Positions 1 to 23,349 of a DNA stretch of 64,000 nt are shown piece by piece. Positions within the stretch are counted from its first letter, which is position 1. Every line of letters begins with the position of its first letter. Source of the stretch: an uncultured Alphaproteobacteria bacterium (lineage in GTDB: Bacteria; Pseudomonadota; Alphaproteobacteria; Rs-D84); the NCBI GenBank assembly GCA_944392775.1, contig CALXXV010000003.1:61279-125278 (forward strand), given 5' to 3'. Both the position numbers and the translations under genes were made by a program. The notes beneath the pieces were generated by a model. That model searched no databases and was not told the origin of the DNA. It worked only from the letters and a program-made list of their open reading frames with translations.

Positions 1-489
1 ACGTAACAATCGTATTTGACTTCCAAAGATAATTCTATATATGCGTTCAAACTCTGTTGCTATCCTATAATTTGTCGAATCCCTAACCATTATATCTATT
101 TTTTTATACGGCGATTCCGCTAAGTCTTTCTTTAACTTATTTTCTATTTCTAATGTATAAGCCTTCAACCCCGTATCAGGCAATTCTGGAAGATCATATT
201 CTGTCTTACGCTTTTTTAACTTCTTATCAGAAGTAGTTGCAGGAATATCAAATAATTTGTCTTGTGTGCTATTTTGAATATCTGGCTGATTTGAGTCACC
301 AAGTGAAAATTTATTGTCTTTTACTCGTAAATCTTCTCTGATCTTCTTTAACATACCAACTATATGCTTTTTCAGAGCAAAAAAGATTAGAAATACAATA
401 AAAGGCCAGCTAGTTAGCAACCCCACTATCGTTTTCACAATATAATCACCACCAATTCCTAAATATTCCAAGATGCTACATGTATTCAT
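1..489 (-). CDS. Hypothetical membrane-anchored protein (3' end truncated by window edge). ATG at 487-489, N-terminal hydrophobic segment, last gene of the R-M-like operon
   Basis: Hand translation of the reverse complement of 1-489 is stop-free (MNTCSILEYLGIGGDYIVKTIVGLLTSWPFIVFLIFFALKK...). Same strand as the upstream R-M genes and only 28 nt downstream of them. Confidence 0.45.
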   Translation of the reverse strand, partial: MNTCSILEYLGIGGDYIVKTIVGLLTSWPFIVFLIFFALKKHIVGMLKKIREDLRVKDNKFSLGDSNQPDIQNSTQDKLFDIPATTSDKKLKKRKTEYDLPELPDTGLKAYTLEIENKLKKDLAESPYKKIDIMVRDSTNYRIATEFERIYRIIFGSQIRLLR

Positions 490-516
490 TTAAACTTCCT
501 ATATTTATACTTAAAA

Positions 517-1887
517 TTAGTCTACCACCCCATAGATTTTTTTGATTTCTTCCAATGGTATATTTAACCCTATTGCTCTATATTTATGAGAAATAGCATT
601 AAACAATGTTTCTATCATGCGGGCCTTTACTTCCTTCGTACCATAATGGAAAGCCTTGTGACAGTTTGGACACAAAGAGACCAAATTTTCAACACAATCT
701 ATGTTTTTATGATACTTGTTCCATACAGCCTCCTGATTTGCTACCGGAATCAAGTGATGGGCCTCCATATATTGCTTATGAGTTCTGTTCGACATAAAGG
801 TTTCATGATCATGGTTAAATTCGCAACAATAATATGCCCTTTTGATCGCTATTTTACCCAAAATAGGATTCGTCTTCGGTCTTCTACCGTGTCCTTTTTT
901 TCCTTCTACAGCTATTGGTTGTACATCGTAAGCCTTTAATGCGATATCTTCATTGACATTATCTTCTTTAATCGCATCAACCTTTTCTAAGTACTCTCTT
1001 TCATCTGTTTCTTCATCATACACAGGCTGAACGACCTTTTCTTCCACGTCGTCTGCTGCCTCTACTACTGGTACATCAACCAAATCTATATTAAAATGTT
1101 GATTATTATACAGCATATATGAATAATCGATATCTCGTAAAAGTTGATTATGCAACTCATCCATTTCATGTTGTTTTATAAATTTTTTGAAAAAATAATT
1201 ATCAAAGTCTGGATTTATAGAGATAGCACTCGCAGTAACTGTAAAAAGAGAGATATTATTTCGTATAATGGTCAAAATACGACTGTTTCCTTCATATGCA
1301 TCCACATATTGTGAGACAGGCCCATTATTAGCTATAAATTCCGCAGCCTTATCTACATCAGAATATGAGTTACATGTAGCAATATAGGTCCAGAAATGAC
1401 CTTTTGATACTTCATTTATTTTGTATTTAGTCTGCAGCTTTTTTAATACCAAATAAATAAAAACAACGGGGAGTACACTATAGTCCTCATTGTTGTGTGC
1501 CGTATCAATGATGGAATGTATTTTTAATTTTAAAATTTGTTCTGTTTTTATTTTATTATACAGTTCAGAACCAACTTGTTCGTCTTTTATCAAATCAAAG
1601 ATTTCTGTTGGACGCTCTTTATTATAATGGTTGCCTCTGGTGTAGAAAGGTGTTTTTGTAATCAACCCATAAAGCTGTGCTATTACTAAAACACGATGCC
1701 TATCTGTTCTTATGCCATATTCTTGATGATGATTTGCAAAATACTGTTCAACATTTATATTCGGATCATAACAAATGTCCGCAAAAAGTTTAGCGGCCTT
1801 TACGGCCTCTTCAAAACTTGCATCTTGTTTAGTAAACACCCATGCTGATTTATTTGTTAGCGTCTTCAGATATTCTTGTGCTGTCAT
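517..1887 (-). CDS. HNH-family endonuclease, putative restriction endonuclease of the adjacent MTase pair (HphI/KpnI-like HNH REase class)
   Basis: C-terminal HNH motif YYCCEFNHDH...EAHHLIP...NLVSLCPNCHKAFH. Overlaps the upstream C5-MTase gene by 38 nt (translational coupling). Confidence 0.55.
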   Translation of the reverse strand: MTAQEYLKTLTNKSAWVFTKQDASFEEAVKAAKLFADICYDPNINVEQYFANHHQEYGIRTDRHRVLVIAQLYGLITKTPFYTRGNHYNKERPTEIFDLIKDEQVGSELYNKIKTEQILKLKIHSIIDTAHNNEDYSVLPVVFIYLVLKKLQTKYKINEVSKGHFWTYIATCNSYSDVDKAAEFIANNGPVSQYVDAYEGNSRILTIIRNNISLFTVTASAISINPDFDNYFFKKFIKQHEMDELHNQLLRDIDYSYMLYNNQHFNIDLVDVPVVEAADDVEEKVVQPVYDEETDEREYLEKVDAIKEDNVNEDIALKAYDVQPIAVEGKKGHGRRPKTNPILGKIAIKRAYYCCEFNHDHETFMSNRTHKQYMEAHHLIPVANQEAVWNKYHKNIDCVENLVSLCPNCHKAFHYGTKEVKARMIETLFNAISHKYRAIGLNIPLEEIKKIYGVVD

Positions 1888-2971
1888 CTTTTAATATCCT
1901 TTTAATCATTGTAGCAAAAAAGTAAGCAAGTTTTGGGGGAACCGCATTACCAATCTGTTTACATATGCTGGTTTTTGAACCTATAAATTGAAAACCATCT
2001 GGGAAACTTTGAATACGTGCTGCTTCTCTAGGAGTTAAAGTACGATCATAAAATGGATGCGTAAAACATCCGCCAGAAGGCGTATCGAAACGGGTCGTTA
2101 TTGTTGGTGCTACTCCATCAGGTATTAAGCGCCCATAAGAACCACTATGTACAGATTTTACAGGTTCTTTAAGTACCTTAAAATTTTTACCCTGTTGAAC
2201 TTCCTTCATGCGCCGCATTGCTATTTTATTATGTTTGGTTGCAATGTGGTTATATAAATTTGGGGATTGAGAATGTAATGAAGTTGTATATTCATTATTT
2301 GGTGTAACATTCGAAATTATCCCAGTATCACTCGGGCTTGGTAAATTGGAAATCGCATCCCATACGGATACCGCATTAAAGAAACCAGGCGTTTTTTTAG
2401 CTAAATATTTTTTAGTTTGTTCTATTTCAGTCTGAAGATCAAAATCAACCAAACTACCAATAAGTATTGTTCTCTCCCTAGCTTGTGGTATTCCAAAATC
2501 TTTTGCTTTAGCAATTGTGTACTGAAGTTTATACCCCAAACTTTCAAAAGCCTTTCTTATTTCTGCAAACACGCGCCCTTTATCATAACTGATAATGCCT
2601 TTGACGTTTTCAAAGATAAATATCTTAGGTTTAACAAGTTTCACTATGTTAAAATAATGTTTAAACAAATAGTTACGCGGATCGTCTATAAACCCATGAC
2701 GAATTCTTGCCCCTGCTGTAGAAAACCCCTGACATGGAGGACCACCAACTATTATATCTGCCATATGTTTAGAAAAATTCTTTCTATTATCCACATTCTT
2801 TATATCATCTACAATCATCTTGGTTTTTGGATGATTGTGAACATAAGATGCCGCAATGTCTTTATCATACTCAACAGCCACTATTACAGGTATACCTGCT
2901 TGTGAAAAACCGCACGAAAAACCACCACACCCCGCAAACAAATCTATAGCTTTAATCATCCGCTCCTCCAC
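1850..2971 (-). CDS. DNA (cytosine-5)-methyltransferase
   Basis: Motif I DLFAGCGGFSCGF, PC motif GGPPCQGFS, ENVKG motif. Confidence 0.85.
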   Translation of the reverse strand: MEERMIKAIDLFAGCGGFSCGFSQAGIPVIVAVEYDKDIAASYVHNHPKTKMIVDDIKNVDNRKNFSKHMADIIVGGPPCQGFSTAGARIRHGFIDDPRNYLFKHYFNIVKLVKPKIFIFENVKGIISYDKGRVFAEIRKAFESLGYKLQYTIAKAKDFGIPQARERTILIGSLVDFDLQTEIEQTKKYLAKKTPGFFNAVSVWDAISNLPSPSDTGIISNVTPNNEYTTSLHSQSPNLYNHIATKHNKIAMRRMKEVQQGKNFKVLKEPVKSVHSGSYGRLIPDGVAPTITTRFDTPSGGCFTHPFYDRTLTPREAARIQSFPDGFQFIGSKTSICKQIGNAVPPKLAYFFATMIKRILKDDSTRISEDANK

Positions 2972-4610
2972 TTATACGATATTTCAGAGCAAAATTCTTT
3001 ACATAATCTAACTCTTCCGGAGACAATTGATAAATTGTCGCTAAACAATCATCAATTTCATCAATCTCTGCCTTGCACAATTTGTGCTTATACTCATATG
3101 TAGTCTGTTTTGTACCTATATATTTCTTTGTTTTTTCTAACTTGTTCTCAAGTAATTTGGCTAATTTTTTAACTGTTTTATCATGTGGAATTTTATCCGG
3201 GACAGAAAACCCTTCCAGATCCTTGTTCGTAATATGCCAACAATCCGATATAATGGTCCAATAGAGCCAGAACAAACTAGAATTAAGAACGCATAACATA
3301 AAAGGCAGGTATTCTTCTTTGTATTTAAATTGTTTATACTCGTTAGACCCAGGATCAAAGGAGAAGGCTTTTATCCAAAAACATGCTCTCATATTCAAGA
3401 AAATATCCTTGCCCGCATTGGCTTGTGTGCTCAATATGTTGCCATTGAACAAAGAGGAAATTTTTTTATATATGCTATACTCAAGCTTATTACCAATTTT
3501 CGGTATATATAATTTATCATTTCCTTTTACATCAAAGATTTCTCTTCCATTCAATAATTCTTGTCTTTCATTTTTATACCAATGCTTATACGTGGAAGAA
3601 AAGGTTTTACATACATCATTCCCCTGTTTAGCAATAAGGATTGATATCTTTTGATGTGCACCAACGAACAAACAATCTGGCCGATCCGCAAAATTCAATA
3701 CTATTTGTTTTTCGCATTTGTTGGTTACAAATTCACGAAGTTTTCCCATACGACTAGTGGACACATATGATAAAGGTAATATAAGTCCCAACGAACCATC
3801 TTTATGCAACAGATTCAAACTATTGACTAAAGTATCTGCATACAAATTTCCATAGTTAGTATGCAATTCTTTGTGTCTAGGATATTTTCCATATTCTACG
3901 TACGGGGGATTACCTACTATATAATCAAACTTATTGTGTATTTTTTTATAATCCAGAATAAAATCATAGTGGTAAAAAGTAGAATTTATCATTTCTGCTA
4001 ATTTCATGTAAGATTCAGCATTTTTCATGCATGGAATAATTGCAAAGAATATTCTCATTTTTGCAATATCAATTGATTCTGTTTCTATATCATTCCCAAA
4101 TACAGTGCCACATATTTTGATAACATCATCGTCAGATAGAGGTATCTTGGCAACATTACACAATTCTAATTTCCACTCTATTACGCTGATCAAAAACTCT
4201 CCTGATCCACAGGTAGGATCCATAAATGTACGACTAAAAACAAGATCTTGTATCTGCCCCTTATTCAAGGTGGCAATCTTTTTTATTGCATCTTTCGTTT
4301 TTAATAATTTTCCAACAGATAATAAACTGGATGCTATTGTGTTGGAAACGACATAATCAGCAACGTCTCGCTGAGTATAATAAATACCTTTCTGCTTACG
4401 ATGTGTTTTAGAAAAAATATCTTGAAATGTCCTTATGGATATGTCTATATCGGATTTCTTGCTTAAAATATTATCTAAATTATATTTTATATAATTGCCA
4501 TTCAATAATATATGTAAAGCCTTCGTTGCCATGCCGACATCGATACTACCACAATTACGACTATTGCACCAACCAGCACATATAATATCTTCTATATTTT
4601 GCACAAACAT
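2952..4610 (-). CDS. N6-adenine DNA methyltransferase, gamma-class (Eco57I/TaqI-like), with C-terminal TRD
   Basis: Motif I FMDPTCGSGEF then motif IV GNPPY. The track start at 4637 is a GTG; ATG at 4610 (MFVQNIEDII) has an AAGGAA RBS, so the start was adjusted. Confidence 0.8.
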   Translation of the reverse strand: MFVQNIEDIICAGWCNSRNCGSIDVGMATKALHILLNGNYIKYNLDNILSKKSDIDISIRTFQDIFSKTHRKQKGIYYTQRDVADYVVSNTIASSLLSVGKLLKTKDAIKKIATLNKGQIQDLVFSRTFMDPTCGSGEFLISVIEWKLELCNVAKIPLSDDDVIKICGTVFGNDIETESIDIAKMRIFFAIIPCMKNAESYMKLAEMINSTFYHYDFILDYKKIHNKFDYIVGNPPYVEYGKYPRHKELHTNYGNLYADTLVNSLNLLHKDGSLGLILPLSYVSTSRMGKLREFVTNKCEKQIVLNFADRPDCLFVGAHQKISILIAKQGNDVCKTFSSTYKHWYKNERQELLNGREIFDVKGNDKLYIPKIGNKLEYSIYKKISSLFNGNILSTQANAGKDIFLNMRACFWIKAFSFDPGSNEYKQFKYKEEYLPFMLCVLNSSLFWLYWTIISDCWHITNKDLEGFSVPDKIPHDKTVKKLAKLLENKLEKTKKYIGTKQTTYEYKHKLCKAEIDEIDDCLATIYQLSPEELDYVKNFALKYRISGGADD

Positions 4611-4699
4611 TCCTTCTTTTCGCAACAAGATTAGCACTTATATTTGTTTTTATCAAGCTCCAAAAACGCAACATATTTTGTGAAACTCTTGCATGTTAA

Positions 4700-5190
4700 T
4701 ATACAACTTGAAGAGTTGTGTAGCCAGACGAGTGTTTATATATCAAAATTATACATTCGTTATATTTGTAATTTTGCATGAATTTATACATGGCATATAT
4801 ATTTTGGGATTATACAGTTGCTATACGCGATGTTATACGGATTTGGCGAATTTTTATATGACCATGAAATTTTTATGTTGTTATACAAGTGTATAAAAAT
4901 GTATCGCACAGCATCCCAATTTTTCGGGTTTTATCCAAAATTCATACAAGGCAAAAAATCGCATAAAAATCAAACGGAAAAATTTAAAACAAAATTACGG
5001 AAAATTCGCCAAAACCCACGGAAAACATTGGATATATTTGCATTATGTTCCAACAAAATACAATCGCAAAATTATACATTTGTTATACCGCTATTTTTAC
5101 TTATACAAAAATTATACGAAAAATCGGCTGTAAGCCACGCTCACCGCGGACTTAAAAAATACACTACATTCAATTGCTTATCTCTGTTAA
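4700..5190. repeat. Repeat-dense non-coding tract. At least 10 copies of TTATAC(A) and a 22-nt near-identical direct repeat CAAAATTATACATT(C/T)GTTATA at about 4745 and 5062. ACGGAAAA recurs 3 times at about 22-nt spacing (4970-5020). A 10-nt inverted repeat GGCGAATTTT/AAAATTCGCC lies at 4843 and 5000
   Basis: Direct reading. Expected chance count of TTATAC in 400 bp of this composition is below 1. Confidence 0.6.
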
Positions 5191-5195
5191 TCCGT

Positions 5196-5228
5196 ATGTC
5201 ACTGGTTCGAGTCCAGTTGCCCGAGCCA
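5196..5228 (+). other. Orphan tRNA 3' fragment: variable region, perfect T-arm ACTGG-TTCGAGT-CCAGT, 3' acceptor strand TGCCCGA, discriminator G, and CCA. No matching 5' acceptor strand upstream. Likely an attR-type remnant of island integration
   Basis: T-loop TTCGAGT with a 5-bp perfect stem. CCA at 5226-5228. The required 5' strand TCGGGCA is absent within 110 nt upstream. Followed immediately by a terminator. Confidence 0.6.
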
Positions 5229-5235
5229 CGAATTT

Positions 5236-5262
5236 CCGCAGATTTCTGCGGATTTTTTATTG
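5236..5262 (+). terminator. Rho-independent terminator CCGCAG-ATTTC-TGCGG followed by ATTTTTTATT
   Basis: GC stem-loop plus T-tract directly after the tRNA-fragment CCA. Confidence 0.6.
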
Positions 5263-5378
5263 TCTGTCGGTCGCCCCATTTTTATGCAAAATTGGACAAG
5301 ACTTGCCCTAATGATATTTTATAAAAAATATGTCCTGAAGTCACTTACGACTTCAGGACCCAAAACAAATCAATCTTA

Positions 5379-6236
5379 TTATTTCAACTTATTGTATTCT
5401 TCATCAGAAACCGGCTCTAGCCATTCATTAGAAGTGTCTTCTCCTTCTAACTCAAACGCCAAATGTGAGAACCAAGAATCTGGTGCCGCGCCATGCCAAT
5501 GCTTTACACCAGCCGGAATATGAATAACCGTACCCTCTTTTATCTCTACCGGCTTCTTACCCCATTCTTGATAGTAGCCATGTCCGCCAACACCAATCAA
5601 CATCTGACCACCACCAGTTGTAGCATGGTGTATATGCCAATTATTTCTGCACCCTGGTTCAAAAGTAACATTAGAAAACTTTACTTGTTCCGTTGAAACT
5701 GGTGCCAGATAACTTTGTCCAACAAAGTATTGTGCATATGCATCATTCGGCTCTCCAATAGGAAACATTATTGTTTTTGCATATTCTTCTTTGCCCATTT
5801 GTTGAGCCGTATCTGCATCTGTCCAAACATTTTTAGCAAGATTAAATACTGCCCACGCCTTTGGCCAACCAGCATAAAATGCATTATGCGTAATAATACC
5901 TGCAATTTCAGATTTTGTTACACCATTATTTTTTGCGGTTTGTAAATGATATGTCAGGGAAGAATCTGTTATACCTTGGCTCATCAAAGATACAACTGTC
6001 ACTATGCTTTTGGTTTTTAAATCTATCTTGCCGTTGTTCCAATTTTCACCGAACAAAATATCATCGTTATAGTGCGCAAATTCTGGTGCGAAATCCCCCA
6101 GTTGATTACGACCTGCGGTTTGAACTATTTTTTCACCCATATTATCTTCCTTTGGTTGAGCTGTAGAATTATCTGGTGCAGAATCACATGCACCTAATGT
6201 TGTAATCAACGCCAATGCTGTTAACGTTTTTCTCAT
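5379..6236 (-). CDS. Lipoprotein with an N-terminal carboxymuconolactone decarboxylase (AhpD-like) domain and a C-terminal cupin domain
   Basis: Lipobox LGAC. CMD-like region ...GWPKAWAV..., cupin HIHH...HWHG. Confidence 0.6.
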   Translation of the reverse strand: MRKTLTALALITTLGACDSAPDNSTAQPKEDNMGEKIVQTAGRNQLGDFAPEFAHYNDDILFGENWNNGKIDLKTKSIVTVVSLMSQGITDSSLTYHLQTAKNNGVTKSEIAGIITHNAFYAGWPKAWAVFNLAKNVWTDADTAQQMGKEEYAKTIMFPIGEPNDAYAQYFVGQSYLAPVSTEQVKFSNVTFEPGCRNNWHIHHATTGGGQMLIGVGGHGYYQEWGKKPVEIKEGTVIHIPAGVKHWHGAAPDSWFSHLAFELEGEDTSNEWLEPVSDEEYNKLK

Positions 6237-22304: not shown

Positions 22305-23327
22305 TTATTTTTGATATAAATTCCACAGGTAATCAAACTGCTTGGTAAAGGCTTTATCTTCTTGCTCAAAAAACATACAATTTTCTGCGTTTGATTCCGT
22401 CGCACTTTCTGTCCAGTTATAGCTACCGCTTTCTATTCTTTTTCCGTCAAATACAGCAAACTTATTATGCATTATCTTATGACCAGTATTTGTTATAACA
22501 GGAATTCCAGCTGATTCAATTTCATCAACCAACGAATACTTGCCTTTTGATTGCAACCTATCTGTAATTACTCTTATTTTTGCGCCACGTTCTTTGGCAT
22601 CTATTATCGCATCAACTATATTCTGGTTGGTGATAGAATATACTGCAATGTCTATCTTCTTTGCCTGATTGATTTCGGCAATTATATTATTTTCACATTC
22701 GGAACCTGGGGTAAAGTAAATTTCTATCCACTTTTTATCAGAAACAGCAGCGACAGGATCTTGTATATAATCGGTTTCAATCTCTTTATTATCCTTACCG
22801 AACAATTTTTTCCAGAAAGAAACTTTATCATCGTTTTTTATTTTCAACCCCAGCGTATCATATACCTGACGTTCAAAATCACTTCCTTTTTGTGCAATTA
22901 ACAATAAAATTTCTTCGTCGTCCTTTCTGGCGATTACCAAAGTATCACCGGCATACGCTGCCCGCATAACATCGTTTTTACGATAGTATAATTTATACTT
23001 ACGATTTCCATTTAATGATTTCGGTGTATAATAATACCAAGTTGTTTCACCCTCATGTTCAATTTCTTTATCACCTTTATACACAAACTGGGTATCATAA
23101 TAAACTTTATCAGCTCCAAGTACATTTATAAGTGCTTTAGTCCCTTGAATTTCTACGCTGGTACTATTATTGCCTTTATACAAAGAATCATTCTTTGCAA
23201 GCGTTTTTACCGCAATGGTTGAATATTTCGCTAAATCTGAAACATTAAAAGCCAAAACTTGTACGGGAATTAAAAACAAAAAAATTCCCATAGACAATTT
23301 CACGAAAAATCGTCCGACTATTTTCAT
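22305..23327 (-). CDS. Secreted phospholipase-D-superfamily protein with a single HKD motif (Nuc-like nuclease or PLD)
   Basis: HNKFAVFDG...GSYNWT HKD motif. N-terminal hydrophobic signal. Confidence 0.6.
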   Translation of the reverse strand: MKIVGRFFVKLSMGIFLFLIPVQVLAFNVSDLAKYSTIAVKTLAKNDSLYKGNNSTSVEIQGTKALINVLGADKVYYDTQFVYKGDKEIEHEGETTWYYYTPKSLNGNRKYKLYYRKNDVMRAAYAGDTLVIARKDDEEILLLIAQKGSDFERQVYDTLGLKIKNDDKVSFWKKLFGKDNKEIETDYIQDPVAAVSDKKWIEIYFTPGSECENNIIAEINQAKKIDIAVYSITNQNIVDAIIDAKERGAKIRVITDRLQSKGKYSLVDEIESAGIPVITNTGHKIMHNKFAVFDGKRIESGSYNWTESATESNAENCMFFEQEDKAFTKQFDYLWNLYQK

Positions 23328-23349
23328 ATACTGTATTATTTTACACAAA

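Follow-up and report, generated by a model that had tools for sequence, protein, structure and literature searches.

A probable integrase-less, phage-derived defense island in the tRNA-Asn(GTT) anticodon loop of an uncultured alphaproteobacterium

We analyzed a stretch of 64,000 nucleotides (the window) of contig CALXXV010000003.1 from an uncultured alphaproteobacterium and, within it, the repeat-dense intergenic gap at positions 4638-5378, on the left of which lies a restriction-modification (R-M) operon. With a probability of roughly 75%, we consider positions 4742-5258 to be the right attachment site (attR) of a ~7-kb island that site-specific recombination placed in the anticodon loop of a tRNA-Asn(GTT) gene and that is phage derived and devoid of an integrase. 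Judged by its sequence relatives, the host is a Candidatus Enterousia-like alphaproteobacterium of the gut or rumen; TAnnTTTG motifs had pointed to Bacteroidota, an assignment rejected because the relatives are Alphaproteobacteria. The class of structure is well known; its particular feature is an integrase-less defense island bearing phage arms, together with a busy tRNA-Asn hot spot in an uncultured clade. An earlier note on this DNA had proposed the end of an integrated element, in which a duplicated tRNA 3' segment serves as the core next to arm-type sites. This proposal is borne out by pairs of full and orphan tRNAs in seven other contigs, by the likeness of the region to a phage P arm, and by the presence of the TTATAC motif in the opposite arm; the crossover has to be moved from the T arm to the anticodon loop. 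The parts of the site are as follows.

4742-5183, + strand: conserved noncoding P-arm module of 442 bp, 93-98% identical in L124 and L132-L137, with the layout of a prophage arm.
4749-4896: distal cluster of six TTATAC copies (4749, 4784, 4810, 4833, and 4881 on the + strand, 4891 on the - strand), candidate arm-type integrase sites.
4974-5025, + strand: three phased ACGGAAAA repeats (at 4974, 4997, and 5018), candidate excisionase (AlpA/HTH_17) sites.
5072-5117, + strand: proximal TTATAC cluster of two 11-bp-spaced doublets (5072/5083 and 5101/5112), candidate arm-type integrase sites.
5126-5136, + strand: small hairpin GGCTGTAAGCC, 58 nucleotides before the core, with a terminator-like score on the - strand.
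5184-5190, + strand: CTGTTAA of the tRNA-Asn anticodon loop, the inferred 7-nucleotide crossover (overlap) region.
5184-5228, + strand: displaced native 3' half of tRNA-Asn(GTT), positions 32-76 including CCA, the core side of attR.
5229-5311, + strand: native flank downstream of the tRNA, with an intrinsic terminator (stem 5235-5252, T run to 5258).

L-numbers denote the related loci and contigs used for comparison, and tiles are consecutive 8-kb contig pieces, so that pairs could be placed. One genome per species was scanned for the exact 28-mer ACTGGTTCGAGTCCAGTTGCCCGAGCCA, which occurs once in the window (5201-5228). At least 119 tiles carry an exact copy, nearly all of them from alphaproteobacterial metagenome-assembled genomes (MAGs) of the gut or rumen, many of which are named Candidatus Enterousia; the genome that contains the window is not among the tiles listed. 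The 28-mer is the exact 3' end of a 76-nucleotide tRNA-Asn(GTT) in at least about 84 related loci (the full gene of the clade is TCGGGCATAGTTCAGTCGGTAGAACAACGGACTGTTAATCCGTATGTCACTGGTTCGAGTCCAGTTGCCCGAGCCA) and forms part of orphan 3' halves in at least about 30. In the window, identity to tRNA-Asn begins at 5184, with the CTGTTAA of the anticodon loop, and extends over 45 nucleotides; the earlier note had correctly seen a tRNA 3' end with CCA, placing its start too far downstream, at 5196. The displaced fragment that characterizes tRNA-gene (tDNA) islands is therefore present, 5184-5228 corresponding to positions 32-76 of the clade's tRNA-Asn(GTT). As had also been stated, there is no 5' partner: the 5' half of the gene (TCGGGCATAGTTCAG...) is absent at the locus, and ARAGORN finds neither a tRNA nor a transfer-messenger RNA (tmRNA) at 4700-5262. 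An early idea, that the piece was the end of a tmRNA or permuted tmRNA, was discarded when it proved to be a tRNA-Asn half. Annotated tRNA-Asn genes of Escherichia coli and Klebsiella phages match 5184-5217 at 100%, and a BLAST search of 4640-5260 against phage and plasmid databases matched the tRNA part only.

The point of crossover can be read from the ends of the orphans. Nearly all 3' orphans start at the first base of CTGTTAA, irrespective of the upstream DNA (two have substitutions in the loop), and at least 12 orphan 5' halves end exactly after it (L012, L013, L026, L034, L052, L057, L058, L062, L078, L086, L097, and L110). The 7-nucleotide loop is therefore the common overlap and the inferred crossover. 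On the other side, the flank at 5229-5311 is 86-93% identical to the DNA downstream of the full tRNA-Asn in L040, L063, L108, L116, and L127, and the strong terminator that had been noticed behind the CCA (stem 5235-5252 plus T run) folds at -13.3 kcal/mol with a z score of -5.4. The orphan and its terminator thus represent the original 3' end of the gene, and alignment identifies 5184-5228 as the displaced 3' half of the host's own tRNA, its native terminator still behind it. Differences in the T stem point the same way: the L132 orphan has the compensatory allele GCTGG/CCAGC, which differs from the upstream tRNA copy and agrees with an orphan of host origin and a restored half contributed by the element, and the L130 orphan has GTTGG/CCAAC. 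In orphans with such alleles, the host's native tRNA allele persists beside an element-borne ACTGG/CCAGT copy.

Full and orphan copies bracket islands in related genomes. In at least seven contigs, an orphan 3' half lies downstream of a full tRNA-Asn and points the same way, the distances being 2.6, 2.6, 5.1, 6.7, 7.0, 8.1, and 9.2 kb, and an eighth pair (L030/L053) spans ~20 kb. The bracketed islands hold mostly R-M systems and other defense-type genes, and in one of them (L107+L122) a tyrosine integrase adjoins the tRNA. An all-against-all protein comparison of the seven islands revealed nothing in common except methyltransferases.

The module at 4742-5183 is conserved independently of what surrounds it. 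Positions 4742-5239 are 97% identical to L124, from a sheep-rumen MAG, both flanks of which are unrelated to the window, and a metagenome scan with the two proximal doublets retrieved six further copies at 93-98% identity; the seven other copies in all stand beside at least three unrelated cargoes. L124 and L132, whose cargoes differ, have the same left boundary, at 4742. Comparison of these copies shows the module to be a discrete conserved unit, separate from the cargo, that keeps the same boundaries beside unrelated cargoes. The search of IMG/VR with an exact 33-mer of the module gave no match. The region had been described as noncoding, and the 168-amino-acid open reading frame (ORF) that spans the module (4818-5324) is indeed broken by a 1-nucleotide insertion in the L132 copy, which marks this ORF as spurious and the module as noncoding.

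The repeats that had first drawn attention to the module are all present. (i) TTATAC occurs 10 times at 4749-5117, nine times on the + strand and thus almost always in one orientation, where a local first-order Markov model predicts 0.64; none of 20,000 simulations reached 10, and the Poisson P is ~8e-10 at the whole-window rate, in agreement with the at least 10 copies against fewer than one expected of the earlier note. (ii) The three phased ACGGAAAA repeats are spaced by 23 and 21 bp, and there are nine copies in the whole 64 kb. (iii) The pair of direct repeats announced as 22 nucleotides long exists, 4746-4765 matching 5069-5088 at 90% over 20 nucleotides or 81% over 32. (iv) Several inverted repeats are present, including 4839-4854 with 5001-5016 (16 nucleotides, 94%). 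The possibility that these motifs form a generic, widespread repeat family was also considered. The only other TTATAC/GTATAA cluster in the window (22986-23181, five copies) has mixed strands and lies inside the coding ORF 22305-23348 (- strand), and TTATAC is therefore not a generic intergenic repeat; that cluster was rejected as a related site and appears coincidental.

The layout of the module matches that of the intergenic region between the excisionase gene (xis) and the core in L035, L143, L146, L150, and L151, as the following distances from the core show.

Arm length: 442 bp in the window versus 465-510 bp in the prophage arms.
Distal TTATAC cluster: -293 to -435 in the window versus about -300 to -490 in the prophages, beginning 1-6 nucleotides from the xis ATG.
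ACGGA repeats: -210, -187, and -166 in the window versus -169, -179, and -189 in the prophages.
Proximal TTATAC copies or doublets: -72 to -112 in the window versus -82 to -124 in the prophages.
GGCT...AGCC hairpin: -58 in the window versus -47 to -69 in the prophages (L035, L143, L150, and L151).

The left boundary of the module at 4742 therefore corresponds to the point at which xis would start, and the comparison shows that the module has the layout of the arm that, in prophages with P4-type tyrosine integrases, runs from the start codon of xis to the core. L035 has a diverged arm, with six TTTATAC copies, directly between the orphan and a divergent pair of genes encoding an excisionase (HTH_17/AlpA; HTH_17 and excisionase PHROG matches) and a tyrosine integrase, the latter composed of an N-terminal Arm-DNA-bind_3 domain (PF13356) and Phage_integrase. 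Its closest relatives (67-70% identity) are found in prophages with terminase, ParB-methylase, and Y-family polymerase genes. The integrases P0022-P0025, which are relatives and not genes of the window island, also have PF13356 Arm-DNA-bind_3 and adjoin arms of the same layout. The left arm and orfX (see below) of a TTATAC-type island come immediately after a prophage of this integrase family in L152. Arm-type sites are marked by a motif that differs from the core and recurs in both arms, and this is what we found: the window P arm has the 10 TTATAC copies, and the doublet TTATACATTTGTTATAC is present in the P' arms of L136, L132, L075, and L022. Other orphan families have repeated motifs of their own at the equivalent place (GCTACAC, TTTGCTAC, and TATTCTATG), a variety that fast-evolving arm-site specificities would explain.

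Integrase and excisionase genes of the same family also occur, as divergent pairs, upstream of full tRNA-Asn genes (L121 392-2236, L037 5042-6873, L079, L065, L089, and L153), at a distance of ~280-390 bp and with the tRNA promoter in between. Such elements apparently bring the promoter and the 5' half with them, the gene being made whole again at their right end, and L153, a contig from IMG/VR, terminates exactly at CTGTTAA.

The extent of the whole island was derived from sister copies. L136 and L137 are 93% identical to window positions 4-5201 and extend further to the left, and a 19-kb NCBI contig was compared by its gene map. The L136/L137 island is ~7.0 kb long and starts with an orphan tRNA-Asn 3' half with terminator; then follow a left arm with the doublet TTATACATTTGTTATAC ~120 nucleotides after the CCA, the 68-amino-acid orfX, a SocA/Panacea toxin-antitoxin pair, a gene for a 237-amino-acid protein, the HNH/C5/N6 R-M operon, the module, and the core. 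The suggestion that the R-M operon is island cargo is thereby supported. By analogy, the left attachment site of the window island should lie ~1.8-1.9 kb beyond position 1. The L132 contig begins with a tRNA end, which probably belongs to a full upstream tRNA-Asn that is cut there; next come an L136-like left arm and orfX, a different cargo (4.85-kb island), the module, and the orphan. Between L132 and L136, orfX differs by 33 nucleotides but only three amino acids, and it is therefore a real gene. Its family (68-80 amino acids, MKYKHFREIEPSNKTDF...) stands beside the left arm in L136 (1957-2169), L132 (634-876 in the oriented contig), and L152 and has no Pfam or PHROG match; it is under strong purifying selection, and orfX could be a directionality or regulatory factor.

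An integrase, which had been expected in the element, is lacking: neither the L136/L137 island (7.0 kb) nor the L132 island (4.85 kb) contains an integrase or excisionase homologue, and a tblastn search of the window with ten tyrosine integrases and an excisionase returned nothing at an E value below 0.4. Attachment sites of an autonomous element family thus flank recombinase-free DNA in these copies, and the comparison shows TTATAC in both arms of sister islands that are complete and have no recombinase. At the nucleotide level, the right flanks of L133, L135, and L136 resemble nothing in the window, and the same island therefore occupies different contexts.

These data are compatible with the following scenario. 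An ancestral prophage would have lost everything between its two arms except the small orfX and would then have gained defense cargo. The resulting island, carrying a tRNA 3' half of its own, would have recombined within CTGTTAA and pushed the host half away. The TTATAC copies, many in doublets spaced by 11 bp, would be bound by the N-terminal domain of the integrase (Int), the catalytic domain of which would act at the core, i.e., CTGTTAA plus TCCGTATGTCA, and the ACGGAAAA repeats are putative sites for the excisionase (Xis). Without Int and Xis from a related phage or element present in its cell, the island would be neither excised nor integrated. The excised circle is expected to have the junction ...CAATTGCTTATCT-CTGTTAATCC...GAGCCA-terminator-P' arm, and the empty site is expected to join the full tRNA-Asn to CGAATTTCCGCAGATTTCTGCGG.... 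The signs of mobilization in trans are indirect, namely, the same island in different flanks and the tandem placement beside a prophage in L152.

A number of observations weigh against an attachment site of this kind. (i) The left end of the island lies outside the window, and its tRNA partner is deduced from L132 and L136/L137; the latter are 93% identical to the island and have as left partner an orphan 3' half in a tandem array and not a full gene. (ii) The part of the genome that is visible, i.e., the 64 kb, has yielded no integrase. (iii) Neither the circular junction nor the empty site of the window island was recovered. (iv) In L133-L137, the module adjoins only 18-19 nucleotides of core and then other DNA. 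(v) Arm motif and integrase are imperfectly paired: the L035 integrase is 56-60% identical to integrases with GCTACA-type arms and only ~50% identical to those of L121 and L037, which also have TTATAC. (vi) That Int binds TTATAC and Xis binds ACGGAAAA is a prediction.

The core-only junctions deserve closer description. The first 18 nucleotides of the half (5184-5201) persist even where the remainder has been replaced, and in L133-L137 and L145-L151 only CTGTTAATCCGTRTGTCA(G), 18-19 nucleotides, is kept before other DNA. Beyond this core, the sequences of L133-L137, L145, L146, L149, L150, and L151 are partly alike, e.g., GTCAGTTnAGCAGAT.... Such junctions may represent short-core attP sites of phages, secondary sites, products of rearrangement, or decayed orphans that keep nothing but the functional core. 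A search of the window module for the core half-sites TCCGTATGTC or GACATACGGA found the real core only. Inverted half-sites separated by 7 nucleotides are found in the P arm of L152, ~55 nucleotides before the core, and in the P' arms of L132 and L075, among them the perfect repeat GACATACGGA-CTAGCGT-TCCGTATGTC and also GACATACAGA-ATGCTAC-TCCGTATGTC; these repeats resemble symmetric pseudo-core sites.

The main competing explanation, which we judge improbable without dismissing it, holds that the locus is an inert fossil: remnants of a decayed prophage whose cargo was swapped by homologous recombination after DNA uptake, the arms acting as anchors of homology. The missing integrase, in island and window alike, and the failure to find the circle junction and empty site speak for it, as do arms that are 96-98% identical beside unrelated cargo, which is what flank-mediated homologous replacement would give, and the many junctions that look degraded to the 18-nucleotide core. 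Similar degenerate remnants also occur in Tycheposon islands (10.1101/2020.12.28.424599). A fossil does not, however, account well for 442 bp of AT-rich noncoding DNA whose eight copies, beside at least three cargoes, remain 93-98% identical and end sharply at common boundaries, nor for the joint conservation of both arms and orfX, with its three amino acid versus 33 nucleotide changes. Furthermore, the 18-nucleotide core persists where the tRNA half is otherwise gone, pointing to selection for the recombination site, and the island occurs in different right-flank contexts.

Two alternatives raised by the earlier note, iterons and regulator sites, are not favored, and we regard both as very unlikely. 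In the first, TTATAC would be the iteron of a replication origin in an integrated plasmid-like replicon, and a short motif repeated in one orientation, partly at 11-bp spacing, within AT-rich noncoding DNA is what an origin might show. Yet the complete islands L132 and L136 have no replication initiator gene, the motif core measures 6-7 rather than 17-22 nucleotides, its two clusters flank other repeats and the motif occurs on both sides of the attachment core, prophages have this layout immediately upstream of xis-int, and plasmid matches are confined to the tRNA part. In the second, equally improbable, the repeats would be operator or promoter elements of the adjacent R-M operon; the N6 methyltransferase gene, which starts at 4637, does have the module upstream, and there are promoter-like hexamers on the - strand. 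Its boundary at 4742 is nevertheless ~100 bp from the gene, it is unchanged beside unrelated genes in L124 and L132, and the homologous phage arm flanks xis-int, where a promoter role would concern xis-int and not R-M genes. Least plausible is that the module gives rise to a structured noncoding RNA that ends at 5258 and resembles a tRNA at its 3' end: a promoter-like site at 5037-5064 (+ strand) and the strong terminator after the CCA would suit it, but Rfam returned no family for the region (no match better than an E value of 1.8), the tRNA-like part is a half-gene common to at least about 30 orphans with unrelated upstream DNA, and the terminator is the native one of the tRNA.

The G+C content is ~31-33% to the left of the gap versus 37-40% to its right, and the neighboring genes are the following, those of the R-M operon being assigned by Pfam matches.

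1-489, - strand: 5' part of the gene for a 237-amino-acid membrane-anchored protein, which runs past the left window edge; island cargo.
517-4637, - strand: R-M operon; island cargo.
517-1887, - strand: HNH endonuclease of the R-M operon.
1850-2971, - strand: C5 cytosine methyltransferase of the R-M operon.
2952-4637, - strand: Eco57I/N6-type methyltransferase of the R-M operon, with its start at 4637.
5379-6236, - strand: CMD-cupin gene to the right of the gap, beyond which lie ordinary metabolic genes.

The R-M operon is also present in L135, L136, and L137, at 92-98% amino acid identity. Homologues of the 237-amino-acid gene (236-239 amino acids) sit within defense islands, and one fills the same place in the 93%-identical island L136. 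Elsewhere (L131, L128-L130, and L121 4757-7996), this gene is found downstream of a type III-like Res/Mod pair, in a larger defense island with an SNF2 helicase, DUF4391, AlbA_2-Fic, and GmrSD. A tRNA was sought near these homologues; their context was obtained and included none. Look-ups with window proteins, made to extend the locus to the left, yielded no more than short contigs from metagenomes, arranged like the window. Independent metagenome assemblies, from different samples and assemblers, stop at identical positions (L004 and L005 at 4578; L006 and L007 at 5147), which hints at strain-level variation or repeats there.

Across the clade, the region downstream of tRNA-Asn is a multisystem defense island, and it provides several further observations. 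An identical 2.6-kb island lies between full tRNA-Asn and orphan in two MAGs (L042 3035-5643; L018+L060) and carries a 199-amino-acid resolvase-type serine recombinase and a divergent S-adenosylmethionine synthetase-like gene. In several contigs, the full gene is preceded at 3-7 kb by an orphan 5' half, the two bracketing integrase-less defense cargo (DUF3644, SLFN/AlbA_2); in CADARU010000011, the order is 5' orphan, 3.4 kb, full tRNA, 6.7 kb, and 3' orphan. L058, L097, and L052 each have a 5' orphan on the strand opposite to a tRNA-Asn or 3' orphan that is a few hundred base pairs away (in L058, 5' orphan on the + strand at 4434 and full tRNA on the - strand at 4833-4908), an arrangement that recombinase-mediated inversion between inverted attachment sites would fit. 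L081, L031, and L085 carry this alphaproteobacterial tRNA-Asn and are filed under Bacteroides fragilis, Acutalibacteraceae, and Oscillospiraceae bins, probably as a result of binning contamination.

Several known systems resemble the island in part. The Islander collection lists an anticodon-centered crossover for 2,083 of 3,919 islands, 3' fragments for 3,760, and 5' fragments for 159, and it requires an integrase gene inside the island (PMC4383910). Anticodon-centered sites and a minority of 5'-fragment islands are therefore established categories. As in these tDNA islands, the tRNA gene is split and a displaced fragment marks the far end; in related contigs, a full tRNA gene stands in the same orientation at the other end, and the window island would likewise have restored the gene. 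Complete homologues of the window island contain no integrase.

In attP sites of the lambda/P4 type, core-type sites are flanked by P and P' arms that contain arm-type Int sites and Xis sites; a study of IntS and TorI of KplE1 reportedly concerns this organization. The likeness consists of (i) a repeated noncore motif on both arms, (ii) a second class of phased repeats between the arm clusters and the core, (iii) integrases with an N-terminal arm-binding domain in relatives, and (iv) an HTH_17/AlpA excisionase gene adjoining the arm. Unlike those sites, the arm is long (~440-510 bp) with 9-10 motif copies, the window arm stands apart from int-xis, and its protein-binding sites are candidates.

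Cis-mobilizable elements (CIMEs) derive from integrative and conjugative elements (ICEs) such as ICESt1 and ICESt3 of Streptococcus thermophilus. Like CIMEs and other integrase-less elements flanked by attachment sites, the islands have attachment sites related to those of an autonomous element, lack recombination genes of their own, and occur in arrays and in tandem with an integrase-bearing element (L152). In contrast to CIMEs, the likely parent or helper of the window island is a temperate phage and not an ICE, the cargo consists of defense genes, and mobilization is putative.

In Prochlorococcus islands shaped by Tycheposons, successive integrations at a tRNA hot spot push older elements inward, and partial tRNAs and degenerate elements are scattered through a defense- or cargo-rich island (10.1101/2020.12.28.424599). 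A small streamlined genome and a tRNA hot spot with leftover partial tRNAs are common to both cases. The phylum and the integrase lineage differ, and Tycheposons are defined by integrase and replication modules of their own, which the window island lacks.

A broader picture is possible, although we hold it to be doubtful. In it, the tRNA-Asn anticodon loop of Candidatus Enterousia-like bacteria would be an integron-like capture site, at which attachment-site-only defense cassettes (two phage arms, a small gene, and swappable cargo) parasitize the Int and Xis of resident temperate phages, form arrays, and pass between species; the 18-nucleotide core CTGTTAATCCGTRTGTCA would be kept by selection where the tRNA half has decayed.

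The analysis has several consequences. It provides single-nucleotide boundaries for a defense island in an uncultured clade of gut and rumen alphaproteobacteria with small genomes and pinpoints positions 32-38 of tRNA-Asn as the main integration hot spot of this clade. It also supplies a concrete set of candidate recombination sites, comprising the 18-nucleotide core, the TTATAC arm sites, and the ACGGAAAA repeats, names a candidate family of helper integrases, and implies for annotation that the 168-amino-acid ORF 4818-5324 is not a gene. If Int and Xis of phages still mobilize such islands, this would be a route by which R-M and other defense systems spread among streamlined genomes without conjugative elements.

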